62,625 nt of DNA from NCBI GenBank assembly GCA_034780895.1, contig JAUZTB010008443.1, forward strand, positions 62,001 through 124,625. The letters are read 5' to 3'. The translations under genes were made by a program, and so were the position numbers. Origin of the DNA: Rhynchobatus australiae. Taxonomy: Eukaryota. This document shows positions 9,551 through 62,546 of this stretch, piece after piece. The notes below the pieces were generated by a model. The model searched no databases, was not told where the DNA came from, and worked only from the letters and a program-made list of their open reading frames with translations. Position 1 is the first letter of the stretch. Every line of letters starts with the position of its first letter.

Positions 9551-9614
9551 ACGCTTTATAATTTTAGCTTAAATTTTATTATCAGCTATTTTTTTTCATG
9601 AGTCTACACAAAAT

Positions 9615-9697
9615 TAAACCTACAGACATGTCACTTCTCAATTTGGCTGCTTCATTTCTGCCCTGACCAGGTTATGAGGTTTACATTCTATAGGCCT
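9615..9697 (-). ncRNA. ffs: Signal recognition particle RNA (4.5S/scRNA)
   Basis: Domain IV-like GGTCAGGGCAGAAATGAAGCAGCC; ends pair (AGGCCTATAGA/TCTGTAGGTTT); extended -10 TGTTATAAT at 9702-9710. Confidence 0.9.
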
Positions 9698-9739
9698 ATC
9701 AATTATAACAATAACTTTAAGATAAAGTAAAATAATAAC

Positions 9740-10944: not shown

Positions 10945-11808
10945 TTAGTTACTATAAAGATTTTCGTATTTAGAAGTTTTGTTTTCAAAATTAGCTAAGT
11001 GTTTAGCAGTTTTCATGATTTTTTGAAAATGGGCTTCCACTTTTTCGATGCTAATAATTTTTTTAGTAACTAAATCAGTAGCGATTTTTTGTAAAAAAGC
11101 GTAAGGCACTTCTTTTAGTTTCCAAAAAGTGTAATTAATTATTAAATTTAAACTGACAAAACTAAAGTGTTTAATGAACTGTTGTTTTCAGTTACTTAAA
11201 TATTGCGGCGCCACAGCTTGACAAAGATAAGCATAAAATTTTTCAGGACTTAACTGCTCAGTCGCTGCAGTGAGCGATAAGTTCTTAATTGCCTCATTAC
11301 TTAATAAATTTAGTTTTGTGCCTGGCACATTGCTATTTTCTAATTCTTTTTTATAAACACTAAATATAGATTGAGACACTTCAGCATAATCATTACTCAA
11401 AGGCGCTTTGATTTGGCCTCAAGTTGCAATTAGTTGCTGAAAATTGTTGTTCCCTAAACTATTTTTTAAGAGTTTCACTAAGAGCGGATTGGCAAAAAAA
11501 TTTTTAAAATCATAAGGCAAAGCGAGTTGCAAAACAACGTGTTGGGCTTTTGTGGAAGTAAAAGTTTTAATCAGTCCACAAGCTTCTAGTCGGTGTAAGG
11601 CTGCTTTAATTTCTGGCTTTGGCAATTTTAAAAAAAGGGAAACTTCAGCAAAACTAAAGTTTTGCACATTATTGCTATGAAAGAGTAAATAAGTATAAAA
11701 AGCGAAGCCCGAAGTTTTAATTAGGGGCAGATAAAATCTGTTGACATTTTTAATACTTTCAATTGTAAAAGTACCTAATTTGGCGCAAGAAAAATACTCA
11801 AACAGCAT
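10945..11808 (-). CDS. dnaB: DnaB/DnaD-family replication initiation and membrane attachment protein
   Basis: FYLPLIK..GFAFYTYL, ALHRLEACGLIKTF, LPYDFKNFFANPLL resemble the Firmicutes DnaB N-terminus; synteny after coaE; SD AAAGAGGG. Confidence 0.7.
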
Positions 11809-22976: not shown

Positions 22977-25028
22977 TTAAAAAAGATATTTTCTTAAAGC
23001 ATCACGCGTTGCCTTTAATAAACAATTGACAATACTGAGTTTTTCATAATCTTTAAGATTGTTTAAAAAACTTAAATAAAGTTGGTGTAAATAGTGTGGA
23101 TTGTTTAAAGAGACAAAAAAACGAATTAAGTTTCTTTCGAGTGTTATTTTGGTATTTTTGTGTAAACTAGCTAGCTTAATGAGGGCGTAAATTTCTTTAC
23201 TAATAAGACCAATTAGAACATCACGATGCGGTGAGTGAAAAGAAGCTTCGAAAAACGTTTTCATTAACTTTTTATGAATTTGTTGATTACGTTCAACTAG
23301 TTTAATAAACATTTGGCGAATGTTGCCAGCGTCTAAATAATCATTAGGAAACGCAAAAATATCGGCACTAACTTTTTCTAAATAGTCATTAATTTCGTTT
23401 TTAGCAATTAACTCTTGGAGCAGTTCTAAAACTGCATGTTTTGTAATTGTGCTTTTACGTTTAAACAAAATGCGGTTTACAAAAAAGGCGTTAAGCTCTT
23501 TTTTCTTTAATAAAAGCGCTATTAATTTTAAAAGTTGTTGACCTAAAAAAAGTGGATATTTTTGCGTTAATAAAATTAAACTTTTTAATAAATCTAAGTA
23601 ATTATTTCTATCATAAAAGTGTTTTTCAGCAATTTTTAAAATTTTGTGTAGATCAAAAACAAAACCTAAAATTTTAGTGTCTTGATCGTCTTCTCTTTGA
23701 ATTTTAACAATCATTTTTTGTAAAAAATAACTATTTACAAAGTAACTATATAAATCTTCAAGTAACTGTCCTTTTTGATAATCCTTAAAGTCTTTAAAAA
23801 GAGTGTTTAGTTGAGAATCAAAAAAGGTATGATTTTCTAAGTATTGACTAACGATATTAAGAAAGCGTTTTTTTCAAGAAAAAAGCAAAAATGTCGTTTT
23901 TTGAAGGTAATTATGGTACTGAAAATAGTCTAAATAATAGTTGATGCGTTTTTCTTGATTGATAAGCCTTTGCGTATAATTTTGGTTCTTAATTCATCAA
24001 TTATAAAGTTCTTCTTTAGTGAAATTAATTAATTTTTGTGAAGAGCTATTTTTATTAGTTTCATCATTGTATCAGTTGTTTAAATTACGCTTTGAAATTT
24101 TATTGTTAAGGCTTTTTACTGGAGCTAAAATATTAGTCGTTTCGATCAGTAAATTAAAAGCTATTTTTTTATGTCCTAATGCACTTGGGTGAATATCAAA
24201 GATGTTTTTGGCAAAATGATGTCCTTGTCAAATTCATTCGTTTTTTTGGTAAATGTTTATAAATTTACCTAAGCCGTTTTTCACTACTGTATCTTTAATC
24301 AAATTGTTTAGTGAACTAATTAAAACATTACTTAAAGAGTAATCATTGGCAGCACTTTGGTTTTGAAATAAATTTAATAAATCCGGCAACTCTAAATATT
24401 CAAAATTATTAAAAAATTTTTTTGCTAACTGATCGATTGCCATGGAAAGACGCAAAAGGGGCAAAGGATAATCTAGATAATAAACTTTCGCTTTTTGATT
24501 TTCTTTTTTTAATAATTGCGAAAAAATAACTAAATTTTGAGCTATTTCTTGATACGTTTTTTTTATTAAAACTTTTAGTTTTGCAAAAAAATCACTATAC
24601 GATTTTTTCGAAGCTAAAAATATTTGCGGTAAAAATTCAAAAAAGGCTTCTAGATAATCATTGGCTCCTAATGAAACAGTAATGATATTAGCACTTTTTA
24701 GAGCAACTAAGAAATTTTGTAAATGGCTTTCAAATTGACTATTTCACTGACTTTTAAAAAAAGCGCTCTGCTTTGTTTTTAGTAATGCAATTCAATCACT
24801 AAGCTTTGATCCTGAAAGAGCAAAATTATCAAAAGTAGTTATAATTTGTTGATTAATTTCTTGCACAAAATGGACAAAAAAAGCAGGATAAGAAACGCCC
24901 GATAAATAATTAAGTTGGGGTACAGTTTCATCAAAATATTTGCCTTTTAAATCTTTTGCTAATTTAATATTAAAACCAGCCGCTAAAGAATCGCCGAGCG
25001 CTAAATAACGCAATTTAGTTTTCTCCAT
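22977..25028 (-). CDS. SGNH/GDSL-family lipase/esterase, 683 aa, no signal peptide
   Basis: YLALGDSLAAGF (block I), NFALSG (II), SLGAND (III), FDIHPS (V); helical C-terminal extension. Confidence 0.85.
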
Positions 25029-25062
25029 TGTATCTTTTCATTAGTAATAAGTAGCAAAATTA

Positions 25063-25098
25063 TAAATAAAAAAGTGTTAATTAACACTTTTTTATTTA
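25063..25098. terminator. Perfect palindrome/terminator between the two lipase genes
   Basis: TAAATAAAAAAGTGTTAA|TTAACACTTTTTTATTTA. Confidence 0.75.
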
Positions 25099-25107
25099 TT
25101 TTAAAAC

Positions 25108-28100
25108 TTAATTATAATCGTATTCGCGACGTGCTTTTTTAGCGTATCCTTTTTTGAGTCAGTTCATTATATTATTAACAAGATCACTCTGTTTTACGCC
25201 TTTAGTATAAGCTCTTTCTTCTTCAGCAACGTAAAAGATAGTAATTAAAGGGTTATTATTATGGTAATTAGCTACCGATCTGTCGAATCAATATCAAGGA
25301 TTAGTAATTGGTTTTCCTACTAAAAAGTCACTAAAAGTTTTATGAGTTTTAATGTTTCATGTTTGTTTAATTTCAGGATTAGCATCATAAAATTCTTGTG
25401 CTGCATTTAAAACGCCTTCAGCTCATCAAGGAGAAATTTTGAAAAAGGCTCCTCATAAATATCCTGATCCAATGTTTTGACGGAAAAATAGTTGCATCAA
25501 GATATTAAATCTAAACATTCCTTTATAAGCTTGAGAATATTCAATTTTAGTTTCTGGGTGCCTTTTTACTTCAGCTAAAATAGCTTTCATAAAGCTATCA
25601 GCAAAAGCTTTAGATAAATTTTTAATGAAATGGTAAACATTGGCAAAAGCGCCTGAGAAAATAGCATCGTGCACATCAACACTTACACTCGTTGCACTAT
25701 TAGCGTTTGGAGCTTCACTTTGATTGTTTTTTAGCGCTTCAGGTAGAGCATAAGCTGGTAATAAATTGTGATAAATAATTTTGTAAATACCGTCTTTTCT
25801 TTGAAAATCACTTTTATCAAAAAGTAGATTAATAAAATCAGCCAAGGCTTTACCAAAACCTTCTGCTTGCGTAAAAGTTTGAATTTCAGGTAAAAGATTA
25901 ATTATTTTGGAAAGTTGAATTTGGTTGTAATTGTTAAAGGCTAAACTTTTTAAAGTGTCTAAAATAGTATTTAAAAGTTTTTGCGAAGCTTCTTGATTGA
26001 GCGCATCAATTGTACGTAAGCCATTTAAAACGCCGTCTACTAAAGTGTCGAAAATTTTGGTAGCTGAAGGTAATTGGCGTAAAACAATAGCAAAAAACGG
26101 CGCATAGCGCGAAGCATCTGCTTCTGTAATGCCTAAATTAGTGTTTTTTAGTAATGGCGTTGTGATCATCTTAATGAGTGTTTCAAAATCGGCACTGTCT
26201 TGTTTTAAAACGAATTTCATTAAGTTTTTTAAAGCGTTGCGAAAACGATTGTTATTTTGATCGGCTAATTGATGTAAAGCTTTTAACAATAAATCATCAA
26301 AACTAGTGCTACGAGCAATTAAGGCACGATTTTTATTTACAATAAATAAATCAAAAATGGTAATAAAAAGTTCATGCGCTTCATTAGAATCAGCAATAAT
26401 ATCAGTTACCGATCTTAAAGCATCAACGTTAATCTCTTCAGTTTCTAAAGCTAGTTTTAAAACCGAAGCTAAGAAATGACTATCTTTAATAGTAACGCGA
26501 ATTAAGTCTCAAAGTTTTTCTTTAAACTGATTTATAAAATTTTGATTGTTTAATAAATTAGAACTGCTAATCGCTTTAACGAGTTCTAAAAGACCTTCTT
26601 TAGAACTAATGACACTAAAAATTTGATCAAAACTAAAACCTTTAATGGTGCTTTGGCTTTCGCTTTGATTATTAATATTATTATGAACTAAAGTGATAAT
26701 ACTACTAATATAGTTTGATTGTGAAATGATTCTAAAAAAACTAGGCAAGATCGCTTTAGCTTTTTTAATCATTTCTTGACTTAAAACGATGTTTTTACTG
26801 TTTAAATAAAGACTTAGTTGTGTTAAGCTAAAATCAATTAAAAATTTATTATTTGAAGAAGAAGCAATAGTGGCAAAAAGGTGTTTGGCAAAAGTATTAA
26901 TAATAGCTTTATTTTCAAATAAAATTTTTCTAAAAAGACTGTTAAGATTATTAATTTGCGAAAAGTCGATTTGCGTTTCAACAACACTATTTACAAGTCT
27001 ATTTACAAAATCGCTAAAATAATTTTGTGAAGTAACTTCAGTAACTAAATTATTAAACTGTCTTTTGTCTTCGCTATTAGCTAAAAAATTATTATCAAGT
27101 GCTGAGCTTAAAAGCGGACTAATTATTGCACCCTTACTTATCGTTTTAATGATGCCTTTTAGGGCTAATTTAGTCGCTTGTTTATCTTCAGTATTTAAAC
27201 TTTGAAAAGTTGCTAAAGTTGCTTTAATTAAATTAAAAGGATCAAGATTTTGACTAAAAGTGCTTAGCAATTGTTGTTGATTTAAATTTTCGTTTTGCGC
27301 TAAAGGTTCTAAATAAGCAGCTACTAAATCGATAATTGCTTCTAAGACTTTTTGGTTATTAATTTTTGATGCTAAAACGGTTAAGTTTTGTGCTAAACTA
27401 TCAACTTCACTTTGCGCTAAAGTAACTTCTATTTTGCTTAATAAAAGGGGAATCGTTTTTTTCACTAAACTTAATAAATGAGTATTTGTAAAAAGGTTAC
27501 TTTCAGTGAGGGTCGTTTTAATTAAAGCAGCGACTTTAGTTTTAGAACTTTTAATAAAGTTAACTAAAGCAGCAAAAATTGATTGCGCGTCTACTTCATT
27601 TTGACTTTGCACAAACTCTTTAAAAATGCTAATTATTTGTGGAAAGTCTAAATCGTTTAAAACAGTTTTTAAAAGTTCTTTAAAATCAGAATCTAAGTTG
27701 CTAAATTCTGCACCTAAAGTAAAATTATTTAAAACTAAATTTTGTAGACTAGGAGCTTTTGCCAAAGTGCCTATGACAAGACTTAAATTGTCCAAAAAGT
27801 CTTGATTATTTAAAAGTCGATTTATGCCTGGATCATTAATAAAACTGTTAATTAAATGTCAAATAATAGCAATTTCGGAATTGGCTTCAATTTTTAAAAC
27901 TTTTTTAATTTGTGATAAAGACAAAGCCTCGATATCTAAAAGATGATCCATTGCTAAGTGGATTATTTTTTCTAAAAAAGGACTTGAATTTAAAGTTTTA
28001 GCAAAATCATGAATTAAGGCTTTAGTGGCCTTTTTAAACTTAGCGCTAGCTTCATCGTTTAAATCTAAATCTTTTAAAAAGTTGGCCACAAAAAGATTCG

Positions 28101-31100
28101 TTAAAGGATCTAAAATAGTTGTTAATTGGTTATTATTACTAATTTCTTGGATTAAGTTAATGATCGTTGCTTTGGAAGCTTTGAAGAGCGTTTTAATTAA
28201 TGCAGGAAAGTTTTGAGCTTCTTTTAGAGTATCAAAATTAAGATCAAAAGCATCAATAATTTGCTTTATAAAAGTGTTTAAATTAGGAAGATTAAAAATG
28301 AAATCAACAATTTTATTAAGATCAGAAGCGAGCGAAGAATCAGCCACAATTAAGTTTCTTAAAGCGTCTTTAAGAAACTTTTGAGCGCTTTGATCATGAA
28401 AAAGTTTTTCTACAACTTTGGCAACAATTTTTAATAGTTTGTTTCTCTTTTGGGGATTGTTTAAAAGTTGAGAATCATTTAAAAGACTGTGTAAGAGACT
28501 AAAAATATCTTCACTATTTAAATTAATATTAATGACATTTAAATTAGTAAAATCAAGATTAGTTACTAAATCACTAATGATTTTTTGGAAGCTCTTTTGA
28601 GTGCTTAAAGTTCTTAAACTTTCATGTACAAACTGCTTAACTAAAGCGTTTTCTTCTAAACTTAATTGTAAGTTTAACTTACTAAAAATAAAAGGTATAA
28701 AACGATTCAAAGCAGCTTCGAAGCGAGCATTTTGACTTAAGCTTAAACTTTGAAAAAGAGTTTCAACAAAGCTTACAATTGCTTCTTGATTATTAATTAA
28801 AAGCGTTTTGAGAAAAAGCTGGAAAGAATCTTTTTCTAAGTAAAGTTCCTTATTACTAAAAAGATTACTAATGATACTATCAACTAAGTTAGCACTTTGT
28901 AAAGAACTGAAAATGGAAGCGAATATTTCAGGCAACGCTGAAGCTTTAAGATCTTGGGCTTCTAGAGGAAGAGCCTGAGCTACTAGTTCACCAATCAAAT
29001 CAGATCTTAAAAGTGCTTTGATAACTATTTTAAAATCGTTTTCATTTTTTTCTGTAATTAAATTGTTTAATAAAGGTTTTACAAAAAGATAAATACTATC
29101 GAGCTGCTCAGCAAAGGGTGCCTCGGAATTATAATTAGGCACTAGAGCTTTTAAAATTTCTTGAAGTAATTCTTGGAAATTAAAACTTTGATGAGCTTCT
29201 AAATAGTCTAAAGAAGTATTGATGATTTTGTCAAGATTAGCTTCACTTAAAAGCATTTGTGAATTATTAAAAACTAAGTTTAGAGCTGAACTAAAAAATT
29301 GGGGATCAAAACTTTGAGTTAAATTAGTGTTTTCTAAGAAAGCCTTAAGAATTAATTTAAAGTCTTCTTTATTTTCCTTTTTAAATAAAGTTAGAACTAA
29401 GTTTTTGAGAAAAGCGCCAAGAGGTTCTTTAGTTTCAATAACTAATTTTTGTAAGGCTTGTATAACGTTTGGCGCTTCTAAAATTAAATCTAATTTATCA
29501 ATTAGTTTAAAACTGAAACTTTTTAAATTTTCTACAAGTTGTGATTCATTAACTAAAGCTCTTAATAAGCTTTGTAATTTTTGATTAAGCTCTTCATTAA
29601 AACTAGCAATTTCTAAATTATTAATTAAGCCATTAAGCGAATTAGTGCTCAAAAGATCGTTAATTATGATTTTTAAATTATTAATGGTTGCTTCTTCTTT
29701 TAGAAAGTTTTTAAGAGCAGGATTTTTTAATAATTCAAAAAATTTGTTTAATGAAGCTAGACCTTGCTCTTCAAATTTTTGAGCACTAGGTAAACCTAAA
29801 AGTTGACTTACAAGATTTTGCTCAGAATCGATATTAGCCAAATTAACTAAGAATAAATCATAAACTTGGTCAATAAAGGAATCATCAGTTAGTACAGAAA
29901 CTAAGCCTTGAATAAGTTTTTGTAGTGCTTTTTGACTTTGAGGACTAAAGTTTTGCACTAAAGGCATCAGTTTTAAACTTATTTGTTGACTAATAATTTT
30001 GAGAATTGTGCTGTGCGCTGGATCATCGTTTAATTTTTTAAATAAGTATTTTAAATATGTAACTATTACTTCTTTAGAATTAGTTAAAACTGTGACTAAA
30101 AGTTGATTAGCACTTTTGGTTTCACTAATGGCATTTAAATTATTGAAAAAAATGTCAATCATGTTACTGACGAAAAGACTAGTTTCTTCAGTGCTTGTTA
30201 AACTTTGAATAAAATTTGCTAAATTTTCTTGATCTTGTTCATCAAGATTTAATTTTAAAGTGCGATTTAAAAGATTTGTAGCCCAAGCACCAATTTCATT
30301 ATTGCTTAGAATAATTTGAATCGTTTTTTTTAATAAATTTTTGTAATTTTCTTTTTTTTCTTGATCTTGAAAATAGGAATGAGAACTAAAATATTTTAAA
30401 AGCGGCAATAAATCGTCTTTTAAAAAACGATTTATAAAAAGATTAATATTGAAACTATTAATTAAAGTTTCTGAATTAGCTTCTGGCTCTAACGTTTTTA
30501 ATAAAGTTTTTAAAACACGATTAATTACTTTAGCGTCATTAAAAATTTTTAAGTTTTCTAAAACGAAACTTTTTAAGGTAGCAATTTGCTCTTCGTTTAA
30601 TGACAAATTGTATTTTTGATTTAAAACTTTAATTCCCGAAATTAAAACTTTTTTAACTTGCGGTTCTTGATTTTTTAAAAGATCGGAAAAGATGTCACTA
30701 AGAAGTTCTGAAATAATTTCTTGATTATTTTTTAAAAAGGCAGTAAGTAGTGAACTTAAAGAATCAATTTGTAAATAATTTTCACGGTTTTTAACTAAAT
30801 CATCAAAAAGAGCACCGACAAATTTACCTACTTTTGAAGTTAAATTGTATTTTTCGATAATTTCACTAAGGTTTTTGGCAAGTTCTTCGCTTGGCCCTGA
30901 ACCTGCAAAAATTGGTGTAATTAAAGAGCGTAAAGCTTCATTATTAATTAAGCTTTCCACTAAAGGTACAAAAACAGCTTTTAATTCTTTTGCTTTTTCT
31001 TTATTTTTAATAAACTCAGAATTTAAAAACGCTTTCAATAAAGGAATGTAACGATCGTAATTTGATAAAGCTTTTTTTAATGAGCCTAAAAGTAAGTCTT

Positions 31101-32700
31101 TAGAAATTGGCGTTTTTTTGTCTAAAGTAGTAGCATCTACTTCTTTTTGAACATCGTTTATTAAATCAACAAAGAAATCACTTTCAACGATTGGATTAAT
31201 TAATAAAGTTAAATTTTGAGCATCATCTTTTAAAAGAAAATCAACGAAATTACGCATTTCATCGGAACTTGAAAAAGTTTCGTTATTTTTCAAAAATTCA
31301 AGCCCAAAACGTAAGTAAGTTTTATTAATAAGAGCGTTTAAAACACGTCTGCTAAAGTGATTAACATTAAAAAGGTGACTATATTTTTGAATGCGAGCTT
31401 CAGCTAATAAATCACGATTGTGATCAAGACCTAAAATTTGATTAGTAATGCTATTTTCTTCTACATCTTCAAAAACAATTTTCTTTTTCGCAGATAAAAA
31501 ATCGCTTGCTGTAAAGGCTTTGTCCCAATCACTATTTAATTTTTCTAGTTCTTGGCTATTGTAATTAGTTCGATTAATAGTGAGCTTCAGAAAAACTTCT
31601 TGAGCCATTTTTTTATAACCGTGTTCACTAGGGTGAATGTCAAAAATGGCATCACTTAAATAGTTAGCGTCTTCGCCTCAAGTACGTTTATTGAAAACGT
31701 TAATGTATTGCATATTATCATCAGAAGTCATTAACGATTTAGCAATTCCGTTTAAACTATCTAATAAAAATTCGCTTAGCGTTCCTGTTCCTAAACTTAA
31801 ATTTGCCGTTAAATTATCAATTAAGTTTTTCAGTCTTAGTAAAGGCATTGGATAAGAAACAAAATTGATTGTTACTTTTGGGTTTACTTTACGAATATTT
31901 TTAATTAATTTTTGATAACGTTTATTTATTTCGCTAGAAATATTTGAGAGTAAAGAGCTAGCAAATTCGATGAGCTCACGGGTACTATTTTCTGGGGCGT
32001 TTAATTTCTTAATTAATTCATTAAAATCGAAGCCATTTAAAAGTAGTTCAATAAAATCATTAGCACCTAAAGAAATAGTTAAAAGATTAGCATCAGCTAA
32101 TCTAGCTAAAAAGTCTTTTCGTTTAGCTTCATAATCGTCTTTTCAAAAAATTCTTAAGCCTGCTTCGTTACTATTTTCAAAAAGCTGATTTCACTGTTTC
32201 GTAGTTGAGCTAGTAATTCCAAAATTCTTATAAGCAGCTAAACGATTAGCTTCAATTTCGTTAATAAACTGGGCAATAAAGGAAGGATAAGAAAGGCCAG
32301 TAATGGTTTTTTGATCATTATCTACAGTTAACTCTCCAGGATAATCTTTTGCTAATTTAGAATTAAAACCAGCTACGATTGAATCGCCAAAGGCTAAATA
32401 TTTAATATCGTCTGTAATTAATGTTTCATCAATTGATTTATCAATTGGTACTTCATTATCGTTTTGATTAGTATTTTGGTTATTGCTATTATTAGTATTA
32501 TTGTTATTTGCAGAAGCATCTTGCCCAGAATTATTATTTGCTGCGGCATTTTCATCTGTACTCGCATTAGGCGTATCAACTGATTTTACGCGTCTGTTAC
32601 TATCGGTATTAGCAACATAAATGCCAACACCGACTGCTGCCGAAGTTGTAACAACGCCAGCAGTACCGAGTAAAATCTTTAATTTTTTACTAATTTTCAT
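25108..32700 (-). CDS. Giant surface SGNH/GDSL lipase with a helical repeat region, 2530 aa
   Basis: N-terminal signal/anchor without a lipobox Cys, Asn-rich linker, YLAFGDSIVAGF, SLGAND, FDIHPSEHGY; four ORF-track pieces share one frame. Confidence 0.85.
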
Positions 32701-39746: not shown

Positions 39747-41648
39747 TTGAAAAAGAAACACGTTTTAAAAATTTTGCTTATTAGTTTACCTTTTATTGCC
39801 TTGGCAACGACAATGGCTGTAGCTTTAAAGATCACTAAAGACAATCAAAGTCAAGAGCTTAATCTTAAATTTGCACTTAAAGAAAATGTTATTGAAGGAG
39901 ATATTAAATATTTAGCTTTTGGTGATTCACTAAGCGCTGGTTTTAATTCGCAATTGGATAAAGACTACCCTGGTAAGCTCGAAGCAGACGGTACTATTTC
40001 GGGCCTTTCTTTTCCAGCTTATATCGCTCAATATTTACAAACTTTAAGCACTAAACGTTTTACTAGTTTTGATAATTTAGCACGATCAGGAAGCACGCTC
40101 AGTGAGTGGAACAGTCTTTTTTCTTTAGCCCTTCCTTCGTGGCAAAAACACTTTCCTAATTCAGAAGCTATCGCAGCTTTTCAAAAGCTTTTTTTAGAGA
40201 AGTTAAAAAATGCTAATTTAGTAACTATTTCTTTAGGCGCTAATGATTTGCTTGCGTCTGTTTTAAAAGAATCTACTTTGTTGAAACTAATTCAGGGTAA
40301 TTTCGGTGATACTGATTTTTTACAAAAACAATTTAACTTTATAAGGCAAGATTTAAGCAATAAAATTCGTGCCTTAGTAAATAACATTTTATCCATTAAT
40401 AAAGATGTTAGAATTAACTTTATTTCTTATCCACCACCATTTTTGCGTTTGCAAAACGCCTTCAGTGATCTCCTTTCAATGAACGGAGAGAGAAAGATAA
40501 ATCCTATCAATACGCTATTATCGTTACTAAATCGGACCCTAAAAAGCGCAAGTGATAGTTTTAAATCTAACTATGTTAATTACATTAATGCTTATGATAA
40601 ACGTTGATGAGAAAATAATTCTGCCTTTGCTAGCAAAGCCCTTTTTGATATTCATCCAACTGAGCATGGTTATAAAAAAATGGCTCAAGACATTATTTTA
40701 AAATTAATTACAAATAAGCAAATGGAAAATTTTTCTTTAGATACTTTACGTTCTATAAACGGCAATTTAACTTGAGATGATAATTATTTTAAAAGCGATT
40801 TATTTTCTGTGGGACAGCAAATTAAAATTGCAGAAAACGATTCATTAAATGAGCAATATCGCAGTGTTCTAAACGTTGCAAATAGTAATGCGCCAAACAT
40901 TTTAGTTCGTGAAAAAAGAATCCGCTTTTATGAAGATAAATTTAATTTTAATAATCTTCAAAAAAGATTCTTTGATAATAATTCTGATTCTAATTTTGAA
41001 CGTTTTATCGGTGGCTTCTTTTTATCACAAATTGAAAAATTTTTAGAGGCTAATTTAAATAATTCCGCAAAGCTTACCATTCCTAATCAAGATCTTCTTT
41101 TAAAAGCAATTTTAAAACACAAACTAATACCTAGCCTTTTAGTTAAAATTCAAAATCTAGTCGATCAAAAATATACTCATGAATTAAATAAACAAATAAG
41201 TTTAACTAATTTAAAATCAGCATTTCGCAATGCGCTTCTTGATAAAAAGATTTTATTTAAATTTATGCAAAGCTTTTTTAGCGATAATCGCACTTTTATT
41301 GATCCTCTTTTTAGAACTAAGTTGGCTCAAGCCTTAAGTAATTTTATTATTTCCAATTTATCAACTTTGGAAACATCCTTAGAGTTTCGTGAAGAGCAAT
41401 TAGGACAAAAGTTTATGATGCTTAAAAAGTTTCTTAAAAAACTCCCCCAAGCTAAGGCAGCGCTTGTTAAGTTCATTGAATTTCTTTTAGTTAATATTTC
41501 TAGTTATGTGATCGAAAGTAGTGATTTATACGATATTTTAATCCGTTTTTTTTCTGATTCTTTAACACTAAATAAATTTTTAGAAAGTGTTTTAGCAAAT
41601 CAAAGTGAGACTCTAAAAAAAGAATTTCGTGCATTATTTCTTAATTAG
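39747..41648 (+). CDS. Membrane-anchored SGNH/GDSL lipase, 633 aa
   Basis: Signal/TM segment, YLAFGDSLSAGFNSQLDKDYPG, NLARSG, SLGAND, FDIHPTEHGY; paralogue of 25108-32700; TTG start with SD AGGAAGG. Confidence 0.88.
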
Positions 41649-54294: not shown

Positions 54295-54517
54295 ACTATA
54301 AATTCCTTTCAAACGTTTTTGCGAACGTAATCTTCTTAGTAAATAATTTTTTAAGCGCTAAATCCACCATTGCATAGTCTTTCATCTATGTCCTATCCTT
54401 AAAATATGAAACGCTTAGTAAAACATGTTTTTTATAATAAAATTTTAGCAAATTTTTTTAAAAAAAGGCATTTTGCTTTTGATATTGATACTGTAATTTT
54501 ACATCTTTTTTAGAAGC

Positions 54518-55259: not shown

Positions 55260-56288
55260 ATGAATTTTAAAAAATCCCTTACTGATGAAGCTTATTTTAT
55301 TAGTACTAAAAAATCAAAAAACCGTGCGGTGATGTTGCCTATGGCTACTAGTTCTGCTCAGGCGCACAGCGGCTTAGTTAATGATTATCATTTAATGCAC
55401 TATGGCGTGCGCGCCTTAAATGGCATTGGCACGATTATTGTTGAAGCTACTGCGGTTGATCCTCAAGGCATCATTTCTAAATACGACTTAGGTCTTTATG
55501 AAGACAAACAAATTGCCGCTTTTCAACGTTTAACTAATTTTGTTCATAGTTTCGGAACTGTCATTGGTGTACAACTTAATCACGCCGGGGCAAAAGCAGG
55601 AGCTAAAACGCGTAGAGGTGTCAAAATGCGCGATCATTATAATACCCCTTTTAAATATTTTAGTGTTGAGGATCTAAAAGGTGAAATAAGCAATAAATTT
55701 TTTAGAGCGGCTCAAAGAGCGGCGCAGGCTGGTTTTGATTTTATCGAAATTCATGCTGCTCATGGATATTTATGAAGCACTTTTTTACATCCAGAAACTA
55801 ATGAAGTTTTAAAAACTGATGATTTAATAGAACGCGCGCAAATCTTTATCGATTTAATTAAAAAAATTAAAAAAGAAATCAAACTTCCTTTAGGCATTCG
55901 CGTCTCTTTTGTTGATAATAACGAAAGTGGAATTATGACTTCTTATTATCAACCTTTAATTAAGATTTTGGATCAATATCTTGATTATTGGAACGTTTCT
56001 AGTGGTGGTGTAATTGACCAAGATGCAAAGATTAATATTGAAAAACGCTTTCAAAGCGCATGCACTTTAAAAACCTTTTCAGAAAAAAATATTTTAGTTT
56101 CAGGACGACTAAAAGAGACAAAAGATATTAACAAAGTTTTTGCCGCTGATTTAGATTTTGCCGGCTTTGCAAGTAGCATATTAGAAAATGATAATTTTAT
56201 AAAAAGCAAGTTACTAAAAGAAGATTTTTTTAGCTCGCAAAAATATCCTTGACGTTATAAAGAATACTTTTTAAAAAATGAAAATTAA
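55260..56288 (+). CDS. NADH:flavin oxidoreductase (Old Yellow Enzyme, YqjM/NamA-like)
   Basis: KNRAVMLPM, IIVEATAV, VQLNHAG, AGFDFIEIHAAHGYL, LGIRVS, VSSGG. Confidence 0.9.
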
Positions 56289-56297
56289 GGTTAAAAA

Positions 56298-57122
56298 ATG
56301 AAAATAAAGGAATTTAAACTAAGCACATTTATTTTAACAAATGCTACTAAATATAAAAAGCTTCATGTTTTACAAGACTTAGCTTTGCATGGCATTATTT
56401 TAGATTTAAAAGAAGGACTTTTTGAAAATCAAAAAGAGCTTCTTAGAAAAGAGTTATACGAATATTTAACTAATCTGGATCATCAAAATTTTGTTCCTAC
56501 TTTAGGCTTAAGAATTAACCCTTTAAACACTAAAATCGGCTTTGCCGATTTTTATCAATATTTGGAAAGTAGTTTTAATTTAGACTTTTTAGTTTTAAGC
56601 AATATTAAAGATGGTAACATTATCAATTTTGTTACTAAACTCTTACAAGCTTATCGTAAAAGTACTTTACTAATTTTAAGTATTGATGGCCCAGAAGCTA
56701 TTAGTAATTTAAAAACAACTTTAAATCAAGCAAATCTTGATTTCGTTTATGGACTCGTTATTGCTAATGATACTTTCGTTTTAAAAAGCCAAATTTCCTT
56801 GGATAGTAGTTTATTAAAATATGCCAAAATGGAATTACTTACTGAAGCTAAAAAACACCAACTTCTAGTTTTAGAAGGACCTAGTTTTGAAACTAATAAT
56901 TTAGAGCTTTTATTAAACTCAACGCTTAGTTCTAAAAGTGATGGCTTTAATGGTCGTTTAGTGAATCATCCGCGTCATCTTGCCATTATTAATCAAGTTT
57001 ATTGCGATCATCAAAAAGAGATTAAATTAGCGCAAGCTTTGGAGCCAGAAGCGATTCAGAAACACCAGCCTTTTAGTCTTACTTTAAGACGCTTGCAAAA
57101 GATCTTTAAAGTTAGTCAATAG
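56298..57122 (+). CDS. HpcH/HpaI aldolase / citrate lyase beta (CitE)-family protein, divergent
   Basis: IILDLKEG, LRINPLNT, GFNGRLVNHPRHLAIINQVY resemble CitE DLED / RVN / GF.GK..IHP.Q. Confidence 0.75.
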   Translation: MKIKEFKLSTFILTNATKYKKLHVLQDLALHGIILDLKEGLFENQKELLRKELYEYLTNLDHQNFVPTLGLRINPLNTKIGFADFYQYLESSFNLDFLVLSNIKDGNIINFVTKLLQAYRKSTLLILSIDGPEAISNLKTTLNQANLDFVYGLVIANDTFVLKSQISLDSSLLKYAKMELLTEAKKHQLLVLEGPSFETNNLELLLNSTLSSKSDGFNGRLVNHPRHLAIINQVYCDHQKEIKLAQALEPEAIQKHQPFSLTLRRLQKIFKVSQ

Positions 57123-57144
57123 TTATTAAAAGAAAGAATTGATA

Positions 57145-58290
57145 ATGAATATTGTCTCAACAATAAAAGCGCTTATGGATAAAAAGCAAACTTTAAAATG
57201 AGCTTTTTTAGGTGATAGTATTACTCACGGGTTAGTCCACACTCATAATAAAAATTCTTATAGCGAATACTTTGAATGTTTCATCAAAACCAATCTTAAA
57301 AGAACAAATGATACTATCGTTAATTTTGGAGTTTCAGGAGAAACTACAAAATGGTTAAATCTTTATCTAGATGAAATTAGTGACCATTTTGATATTTATT
57401 TTATTGCATTTGGAATGAATGATGCCGCATCATTTTCTGGCCTAAGTGCTGATGCTTTTTATGCTAATTTAGCGCAAGCCATTCGTAAATTAAAAGCAGT
57501 TAATAAAATCATTATTTTACAAAGTGTGAATCAACTTTGTCAAAGTTACGGCATTGATCCTTGAAGACAAGATCTTAATAAGTATTATCAAAAAATTAAA
57601 CTTTTAGCTAAAGAAGAAAATCTTTTTTATTTTGATTTAGAAGCGCAAATTAGTAATAAATATTTACGAACTTACCAAGTTGAAGAACTTTTTGCTGATA
57701 CTATTCATCCTAATGAAAAAATGCATCTGTTATGATTTTTAGATCTTGTTATTTTTCTTTTTGGTAACTCTTATAGGAATTTATTAATTGAGCAAAAAAG
57801 GTCTCCAGTTTGTGAAAACAACTTAGTATATTTACGTTCTGATAAAGACTTAAAAAAGATTAAAGATTTAAAGACCCCTTTTTATTTTTTCTTTTGAAAT
57901 TTTGATTTTTGTGAAATTGATAAATTACATTATCAAAGAAATTTTCTCTATCATTTTAAAGAGCTTTTTCATAGTCAATTATCTTTTGAAATAAAAAATT
58001 TATTAAAATATTTTATCAGTCTTAAATCATTAAATAACCCTTTTAAAAAACTTCTTAATAATAATTATTTAGAGTTTTATCTTTTTGAAAATGAGAACCA
58101 TTTAAAGACTTTTCAAAAAGACGAAATTACTAATAAGCATAAAGTTTATATTTTTAAAAAAGGACTTTTTGAAAAGATTAGTTCTGATCTTTTGAAAAGC
58201 GATTTTGCCAATTTATTAATTTTTGAAAAGAAAATAAATTGGAGCAATTCAAGAAATTCGGCTCAACAGTTATTAAGACTTTTTCACTAA
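57145..58290 (+). CDS. Cytoplasmic SGNH/GDSL esterase, 381 aa (not in the ORF track)
   Basis: WAFLGDSITHG, NFGVSG, FGMND, DTIHPN; additional C-terminal domain of about 170 aa. Confidence 0.85.
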
Positions 58291-58550
58291 GTAATTAATA
58301 GTTATGATTTTTTGATCTTCAATTTAGCGTATTCTTATTTTTTTTAGAATAACTTGATTTTATTATCAAGAATCAAAACAAAAGAAGTTTTTTTAAAAAA
58401 GGTCTTAAGCTTAGTAAAAAAAGCTTCAATATACTTAGACATATTATTTTGAGAGACGTAATTTAATTTAAATTAAATTGAATGTACTAACTTAATTTAA
58501 ATTAATCAAAAAAAGATATCAAATTGATTCAAAAAAAAATTTTATTTTTT

Positions 58551-58579
58551 TTGAATTGATAATAATTTTATGCTATTAT
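58551..58579 (+). promoter_or_regulatory. Sigma70-type promoter
   Basis: TTGAAT-N17-TATTAT with extended -10 TG at 58571-58572. Confidence 0.6.
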
Positions 58580-58584
58580 TTGGG

Positions 58585-58790
58585 CAACTAGTTATTAGAA
58601 AAATAAATTCTATTATAACTCGTCATCATCCACTGGATGATACATCTGGAGCCAAAAGTGCTATTTCCTCTAATCATCATCGAAATTCATTTTGAATTCG
58701 ATTTTGTACTAAGGCATAGCTTCTTTGCCCTTAGGTACAATTTACCATCCTAATTTATAAGAGTGTAACTTTTAAGTTGCACTTTTATTG
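58585..58790 (+). ncRNA. Candidate unannotated structured small RNA (about 200 nt)
   Basis: Locally GC-richer; five consecutive hairpins between a promoter and a terminator; no ORF starts plausibly inside the transcript. Confidence 0.55.
58757..58790 (+). terminator. Intrinsic terminator of the candidate sRNA
   Basis: AAGAGTGTAACT TTTA AGTTGCACTTTT; two G-U pairs form only on the + strand. Confidence 0.7.
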
Positions 58791-59193
58791 TTTACGCTTT
58801 GTAGTTATTCGTTTTTTAAATTTATTAGTTAAAAATTAAATATAAATTACTTATCAGTAAAAAAAGTCATTTTTATTTAATCGAGAAGTTTAGTTTAAAG
58901 AATTAATTTTTATTTTTATTTAAAAATATTATTGTTTAAAGATTGATAATTTTTTTGCTTATTTTTATCAAAAAATAATTATGAAAAAAATGTAAACATT
59001 TTACTTAATTTTTCAATTTATTAAAATTAGATTTGTTTATTTTTCATAGAATGAAAGTTTATTATGATTGTTAAAAAGATTTTAAATATTAAGTTTTAAA
59101 AATTGTTTTAGAGCTTACAATAAAAAAGTAAAACGTTATCTTAATTTATTTTTCAAAAATACGTTTTATAAATCAATAAATTAAAGGAAAATT

Positions 59194-59385
59194 GTGGTAC
59201 TAGATAAAGATATTGAATATTTTTTTAAAAAATACAATGTGGCAGAGGACGCTGAAGAAATAGACGCTGAAGAGTTTGAAAAATATTTAGATCCTAAAAA
59301 ATATCGCATAGTAAAGTCTATATATTCAAAAGAAGGAAATATCCAATTTTTCAAATTTACTGTTGAAAAAATTGTTAAAAATTAA
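59194..59385 (+). CDS. Small hypothetical protein, 63 aa
   Basis: GTG start with SD AAAGGA; acidic centre AEDAEEIDAEEFE; coding-like composition. Confidence 0.6.
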   Translation: MVLDKDIEYFFKKYNVAEDAEEIDAEEFEKYLDPKKYRIVKSIYSKEGNIQFFKFTVEKIVKN

Positions 59386-61841: not shown

Positions 61842-62546
61842 ATGACCCCACACATTAGTGCTAAAAAAAACGAAATTGCTGATTTTGTTTTGATGCCTGG
61901 TGATCCTAAAAGAGCGCAAACAATGGCTCATCGTTATTTAGAAAATGTAAAATTAGTTTCTTCTGTTCGTAATACTTGAATGTTTACAGGAACTTATAAA
62001 AATCGTCCTATCAGCATTTGCGCGAGCGGCATGGGGATGGCTTCAATAGGCATCTATGCTTATGAACTTTTTAAGTATTATGATGTTAAAACGATTATTC
62101 GCGTCGGCACAGCTGGTTCTTATAAAAAAGACTTAAAAGTTTATGATCTTGTTTTAGCAAATAGTGCCTTTAGTGAGAATAGCCAAATCGCAGGCATTTT
62201 ACAAGAAAAGGCCAGCAATTTAGCTTATCCTGATTTAGCCTTAAGCGCCAAAATTGTTGCCACAGCCAAAAACCTTAATTACCCTTTGCAAGAGGGCCAA
62301 ATTTACACTACTGATCTTTTGTATGATAATCGTACTTTAGAAGAAATTGAAAAAATTACTAATGGTGCTATCGCGGTCGAAATGGAAGCTTTTAGTTTGT
62401 TCACTGTCGCTAAAGCATTAAATAAAGCAGCCGCTACTTTATTAACTATTAGTGATAATATCGTTACCAAAATATTAACTACCTCAGAAGAGCGTCAAAA
62501 CAGTTTTGACAAAATGATTATTTTAGCGCTTGAAACTAGTTTATAA
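61842..62546 (+). CDS. deoD: Purine nucleoside phosphorylase
   Basis: MTPHISA, LMPGDPKRA, SGMGMASIGIY, IIRVGTAG, VEMEA; SD AGGAG. Confidence 0.96.

Follow-up and report, generated by a model that had tools for sequence, protein, structure and literature searches.

Genomic context of the element

The region described here belongs to a window of 62,625 nt (the whole stretch of DNA that was analyzed), which makes up the final part of contig C8443 (124,625 bp) within a 2.2-Gb animal assembly. The contig carries tuf, engB, tyrS, dCMP deaminase, and deoD-like genes and is read with genetic code 4; it is assigned to a mycoplasma on the strength of this code and this gene set. The best relatives of its TyrS are 47-56% identical and are named mostly Mycoplasma or Mycoplasmopsis, and the top EF-Tu matches among 179 family genomes (G434, G433, G256, and G157) reach 86-88%. 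With identities of at most 56% for TyrS and 88% for EF-Tu, there is no close relative in the collections, and every comparative test reported below is therefore limited. The lineage is an uncultured mycoplasma. A contig from one sequencing run, which may be the source sample, matches the region with zero differences. AT-rich gaps are unusually long and common in this genome, reaching up to 3.4 kb.

Between engB and tyrS, on the plus strand, lies a cluster encoding a flavin oxidoreductase, a CitE-like lyase, and a GDSL-like hydrolase (window positions 55260-58290). Relatives often have tyrS and tuf as neighbors, with varying genes between them; the cluster was absent from all 20 matching tyrS-tuf regions, and homologs of the CitE-like protein were found in 15 of 298 genomes at 16-27% identity. 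The cluster has possibly been acquired. The GDSL-like gene is followed by a gap of 903 bp (58291-59193), bounded downstream by a 63-codon ORF, in which a first-pass annotation had described a GC-richer island within about 900 bp of gene-free, AT-rich DNA. This description holds, and the features in and around the island are as follows.

58551-58579, plus strand: predicted sigma-70 promoter (TTGAAT, 17 nt, extended -10 TG-C-TATTAT), from the sequence and a motif scan
58570-58719, plus strand: 49-codon ORF (code 4) overlapping the element, put forward by its GC phase as a rival reading
58586-58792, plus strand: predicted transcript of ~205 nt, from fold z score and GC island, with a putative start 6-7 nt past the -10
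58590-58620, plus strand: predicted hairpin H1, pair probabilities 0.8-0.99
58625-58641, plus strand: predicted hairpin H2, a perfect 7-bp stem beginning in the first TCATCATC, pair probabilities 0.89-0.98
58655-58726, plus strand: predicted rod that dominates, bubbled internally and capped by H3, z -4.0 alone, ~70% of the ensemble, burying TTTCCTCT
58679-58702, plus strand: predicted hairpin H3, pair probabilities mostly >0.9, capping the rod
58704-58740, plus strand: alternative predicted hairpin H4, -11.1 kcal/mol alone, ~25% of the ensemble, mutually exclusive with the rod
58741-58756, plus strand: C-rich segment with a ACCATCCT core before the terminator, unpaired in the H4 state, a candidate seed
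58757-58792, plus strand: hairpin resembling an intrinsic terminator, its stem holding two G-U pairs and its tail rich in U, from folding energies

The GC content of the island rises to 0.36, against an intergenic mean of 0.18. In the contig's 1,043 ORF-free windows of 150 nt, four islands reach a GC of 0.27 or more, namely tRNA-His with 0.39, the element with 0.36, a weak island with 0.28, and the 63-codon ORF with 0.27, and the element is the sole unexplained island at or above 0.30. Comparable GC islands are formed by tRNA-His on the same contig and by the RNase P RNA on contig C27986, which we assign to the same organism from its code and GC content. Two more islands on C27986, at 1041-1250 and 11111-11500, are likewise free of ORFs, rich in GC (0.39-0.41), and unmatched in Rfam; the second is flanked by two similar upp-like genes. 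The element itself occurs once in its own assembly, and no paralog was found in 152 kb.

Predicted transcript and its fold

The letters of the proposed promoter, TTGAAT and TATTAT separated by 17 nt and with the extended TG, are present at 58551-58579. Intergenic DNA (41,194 nt) holds just 20 instances of the motif TGnTAnnAT, and one lies at the 5' edge of the island, a placement with p ~0.007 for a 15-nt placement window that was picked after the fact. A TGC-TA-type motif likewise lies upstream of tuf. A looser promoter scan performed at the level of chance, with 11 sites found versus 14.5 expected. At the other end, the terminator hairpin folds with -14.9 kcal/mol on the plus strand versus -6.9 kcal/mol on the minus strand, which points to a plus-strand polarity, as previously proposed from its G-U pairs. 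In the full RNA the terminator forms with a pair probability of 0.9999 and no competing fold; a simple terminator scan returned zero sites in the region, and the same scan also misses a clear hairpin after tyrS.

Measured against 200 shuffles, the predicted RNA (58586-58790) has a fold z score of -5.8, which becomes -4.5 when the terminator is left out. Among 184 background tiles, shuffled 12 times each so that their z values are rough, only two scored -4 or lower, the lowest being -4.37 (170 nt, plus strand), and both values for the island lie beyond all 184. Against shuffles of codon order, the fold retains a z score of -2.5, with 6 of 500 shuffles folding as well. The five stems of the first-pass annotation are recovered in part: H1, H2, H3, and the terminator form where they had been placed, but H4 is a minority fold, its pairs having probabilities of ~0.2. 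Constrained ensemble energies of -55.50 kcal/mol for the rod and -54.85 kcal/mol for H4, compared with -55.71 kcal/mol for the free ensemble, give the shares of ~70 and ~25%, respectively. The anti-Shine-Dalgarno-like TTTCCTCT is found at 58664-58671 as described, but it is predicted to be mostly paired, because the rod buries the segment; the unpaired probabilities of its core (58667-58669) are 0.24, 0.09, and 0.17, i.e. it is paired at 76-91%. In the modeled ensemble, five hairpins with an exposed anti-Shine-Dalgarno seed are not the dominant fold. Both reported copies of TCATCATC, at 58623 and 58674, are present, and the string occurs three further times elsewhere in the window. The two copies are alike over 8 nt only, and a repeat finder returned no family in the island, which speaks against a tandem-repeat antitoxin.

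Taken together, the GC island, the rare extended -10, the strong fold, the strand-specific terminator, and the lack of an Rfam match (see below) make a discrete plus-strand transcript the best reading of the island, and such a transcript is probably produced. To this extent the stand-alone RNA proposed earlier survives, shorn of its exposed seed. That the predicted transcript is non-coding is a more finely balanced matter, to which we give about even odds.

Comparison with known RNA families

A search of Rfam 15 gave no match for the element at gathering score and nothing worth keeping at E <= 10, the best overlaps being with sR23 (12.8 bits) and SurA (12.1 bits), for which the cut-offs are 45 and 100. 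This agrees with the earlier view that the element is not a tRNA, SRP RNA, tmRNA, RNase P RNA, or standard riboswitch, and the individual comparisons point the same way. For example, there is no RF00011 or RF00169 match at the element; the SRP RNA is encoded at 9609-9701 of the window, and a class B RNase P RNA is encoded on C27986. ARAGORN reported no tmRNA at the element, and local alignment with the tmRNAs of three relatives remained at the level of shuffled sequence; the organism's own tmRNA was looked for and was not located. A riboswitch or attenuator leader would be expected to show an antiterminator fold, and none is predicted; the terminator forms in every state (probability 0.9999), so that the element is not an attenuator of the next gene, and the next ORF starts 400 nt further on with its own Shine-Dalgarno-like site. 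A T-box-like string on the minus strand (58743-58756) lacks the closing helix and sits downstream of tyrS. A type I toxin-antitoxin system is not indicated either. The 49-codon frame, a 38-codon frame inside the predicted transcript, and a 50-codon antisense frame had no NCBIfam or PHROGs match, and the latter two show non-native codon use, the 38-codon frame having a codon adaptation below that of all 762 chunks of real genes.

The comparison with mollicute tracrRNA is closer. The tracrRNA resembles the element in a GC content of ~33%, several hairpins, and a terminator, and the letters TTGTAC, AAGGC, and GTACAAT, similar to the mycoplasma repeat/anti-repeat motif (PMC6882279), are all present in H4. 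On the other hand, the element holds both motif halves in one hairpin, with 1 nt only between TTGTAC and AAGGC, so that the lower-stem segment of the anti-repeat is missing, and it does not have the layout of a canonical tracrRNA (PMC6882279). Neither a cas9 gene nor a CRISPR array lies near the element; cas9 had no match in the assembly (a search that sets a floor only), and no array was found in 152 kb.

Homologs were found in none of the family, order, class, phage, plasmid, and metagenome sets. BLASTn against 399 of 401 order genomes gave only matches of 18-50 nt (best per-genome E 6e-5), and the 8 of 30 loci examined looked coding-like or unrelated. Two covariance models were built from the single sequence, R1 for the rod and R2 for the five hairpins, and were run on overlapping samples of 150 genomes each. 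They gave weak matches only, one in the family (19.5 bits), two in the order (one within an 843-codon ORF and the other to the terminator only), and one in the class (antisense within an ORF). The best E value in the four closest genomes was 1.4. A search of 1.225 Mb from G433 peaked at 15.7 bits, with a hit that lies antisense to a permease-like ORF, and 12 tyrS-tuf intervals searched with filters off reached at most 14.9 bits. Phage and plasmid records gave best E values of 0.2-0.3. Pattern searches of viral sequences returned 0, 0, and 3 loci, with no homolog among them, and a metagenome pattern returned 112 loci, of which 100 were scored by R1 (best 13.5 bits); nhmmer on all 115 pattern loci reached a best E value of 0.11. 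Because a single-sequence model is weak in power, these negatives show that the element is not broadly conserved and not that it has no function.

A proposed lineage-private small RNA and its alternatives

Our tentatively favored reading, in which we place slightly less than even confidence, is that the element is a stand-alone, lineage-private small RNA with a putative function. Most conserved regulatory RNAs have disappeared from the Mollicutes (PMC4779614), and the mining of GC-rich gaps is an established route to mycoplasma small RNA candidates (PMC8632094). In the Mesomycoplasma group, one report (PMC5088518) describes species-private small RNAs of similar size and GC excess, which, like the element, are intergenic and GC-richer than the genome, measure 60-400 nt, and have no homologs in related species, and for which pairing with mRNAs was proposed. 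This likeness is one of description; for the element, target pairing through the seed put forward in the first-pass annotation finds no support in a target scan. The parts of PMC7745072 and bioRxiv 2025.10.23.681674 that were accessible name no comparable RNA, and a literature search found nothing on the RNA of the element or on the tuf leader motif described below. Species-private, GC-richer intergenic small RNA candidates are already known in mycoplasmas, and the element is a credible, although unproven, addition to them. A caution is that the ncRNAs of Mycoplasma pneumoniae are described as mostly non-essential and put down to transcriptional noise (PMC12494982).

The alternative that survives best, although we consider it rather unlikely, is that the island encodes a small protein. 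The 49-codon ORF would then be read from its ATG on a leaderless or Shine-Dalgarno-less mRNA, with the terminator coming after a short 3' UTR. The ORF had been dismissed on the ground that it starts inside the -10 element, but this argument rests on a single promoter guess, and the GC-phase bias of the frame is significant. GC falls at codon positions 1, 2, and 3 in 20, 21, and 6 of the 49 codons, respectively (chi-square p 0.0014), i.e. a low GC3 with high GC1 and GC2, and the periodicity remains after masking of repeats (p 0.002) and is absent in the RNase P RNA, the SRP RNA, and two tRNAs used as controls. The codon adaptation of the frame (0.586) lies at the 12th percentile of the 762 real-gene chunks, an obvious Shine-Dalgarno sequence is missing from many genes of this organism, and a GATAAT at 58558-58563, 6 nt before the ATG, would permit a leaderless message. 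The exact antisense frame is likewise open. There is also a precedent of a kind. The MP200 RNA of M. pneumoniae is itself ~200 nt long. It is a short transcript overlapping a 29-aa ORF (mp200; PMC12494982); it differs in that the ORF of the element has 49 codons and an ATG that overlaps the best promoter motif, and the likeness is one of layout. Several observations weigh against a protein. The codon log-odds of the frame rank at the 1st percentile among chunks of real genes and do not improve on those of shuffles (405 of 1000), its GC2 is 0.43 versus 0.30 in real genes, the fold of the island beats that of all but a few codon-order shuffles, and no homolog was found in the 179 family genomes, a protein collection, Pfam, NCBIfam, or PHROGs.

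It is also unlikely, to a marginally greater degree, that the island represents the structured 3' end of the transcript of the oxidoreductase/CitE-like/GDSL-like operon, or a remnant of DNA that was acquired and is now decaying, in which case the hairpins would only stabilize or end the upstream mRNA and there would be no separate functional RNA. No strong hairpin follows the stop codon of the GDSL-like gene (z -1.4), and the terminator of the island may therefore belong to that operon. Ordinary tiles also reach z scores of -4 or lower (the two of 184 given above), long gaps are common in the genome, the 20 tyrS-tuf regions of relatives lack all three upstream genes, and the triplet periodicity would suit a gene relic. 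However, the 290 nt from the GDSL-like stop to the island have a GC content of 14-24%, which climbs directly after the rare extended -10, and the frame, read through its stops as X, matched no NCBIfam family.

A highly diverged protein-binding or housekeeping RNA, such as a 6S-like decoy that would present its bubbled rod, at 58655-58726, to RNA polymerase as if it were an open promoter, is very improbable: the element resembles 6S RNA (RF00013) in its size of ~200 nt, its own predicted promoter and terminator, and a dominant fold that is a rod with a two-sided bubble, and the role appears vacant in the group since 6S RNA was found in 0 of 101 family genomes, but there is no RF00013 match even at E <= 10, the rod measures just 72 nt, the 5' and 3' ends form no single long end-to-end duplex with a central bubble, and a housekeeping RNA should show in the closest genomes, where none did.

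Possible mode of action

If the element is a stand-alone small RNA, transcription would begin at about 58586 and end constitutively at about 58792. The two 5' hairpins would be fixed, and the center may switch between the rod and H4, which are predicted to lie 0.65 kcal/mol apart. With H4 formed, the C-rich segment at 58741-58756, a better candidate seed than TTTCCTCT, would become free and might then pair over Shine-Dalgarno-like sites of mRNAs and block the start of translation. Pairing over ribosome-binding regions would be the most likely action of such an RNA, although we regard it as doubtful. In a scan of 97 translation-start regions taken from 152 kb, the linker containing TTTCCTCT (58642-58678) showed no enrichment, 27 and 42 of 100 shuffles being as good. 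For the segment at 58738-58756, a weak result for one of two segments tested, 2 of 100 shuffles equaled or exceeded the mean of the top five duplexes, and 12 of 100 did so for the best duplex.

A more elaborate version, to which we assign a very small probability, is a bistable and possibly dual-function RNA that would alternate between the bubbled rod and a form exposing a ribosome-site-like seed, with the 49-codon frame expressed from an alternative leaderless start. If true, this would be a new RNA class in a fish-associated mycoplasma lineage, within a group that has almost no known regulators. In more general terms, if a stand-alone RNA with such structure were under selection, it would mean that a new RNA regulator can be gained even by a minimal genome.

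Neighboring loci

The 5' leader of tuf (54343-54403 of the window, minus strand) contains a conserved motif of ~55 nt, made of a 5-bp stem and an 8-nt loop followed by TGGTGGWTTTAGCGCT. This motif has no Rfam match. Of 179 family genomes, 12 contain a 16-mer from it, each in a single copy that lies 50-125 nt before tuf, and a reversed control gave zero occurrences. In a six-sequence alignment, double compensatory changes affect two of the five base pairs in the first stem; both are found in the copy from the window. On sequence comparison, the motif is likely an undescribed cis-regulatory leader of EF-Tu, and its comparative support is better than that of the small RNA element.

The 63-codon ORF that bounds the gap (59194-59385, plus strand) encodes an acidic product and has a Shine-Dalgarno-like site and a clearly coding-like base pattern; no convincing homolog was found, and from these features it probably encodes a real orphan small protein. 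The deoD-like gene (61842-62546, plus strand) has two or three diverged extra copies on contigs at the sequencing depth of the organism. Three large surface-type proteins of 683, 2530, and 633 aa are encoded at 22977-32700 (minus strand) and 39747-41648 (plus strand), and they share, by eye, a GDSL-like motif at their start, forming an expanded lipase-like family.
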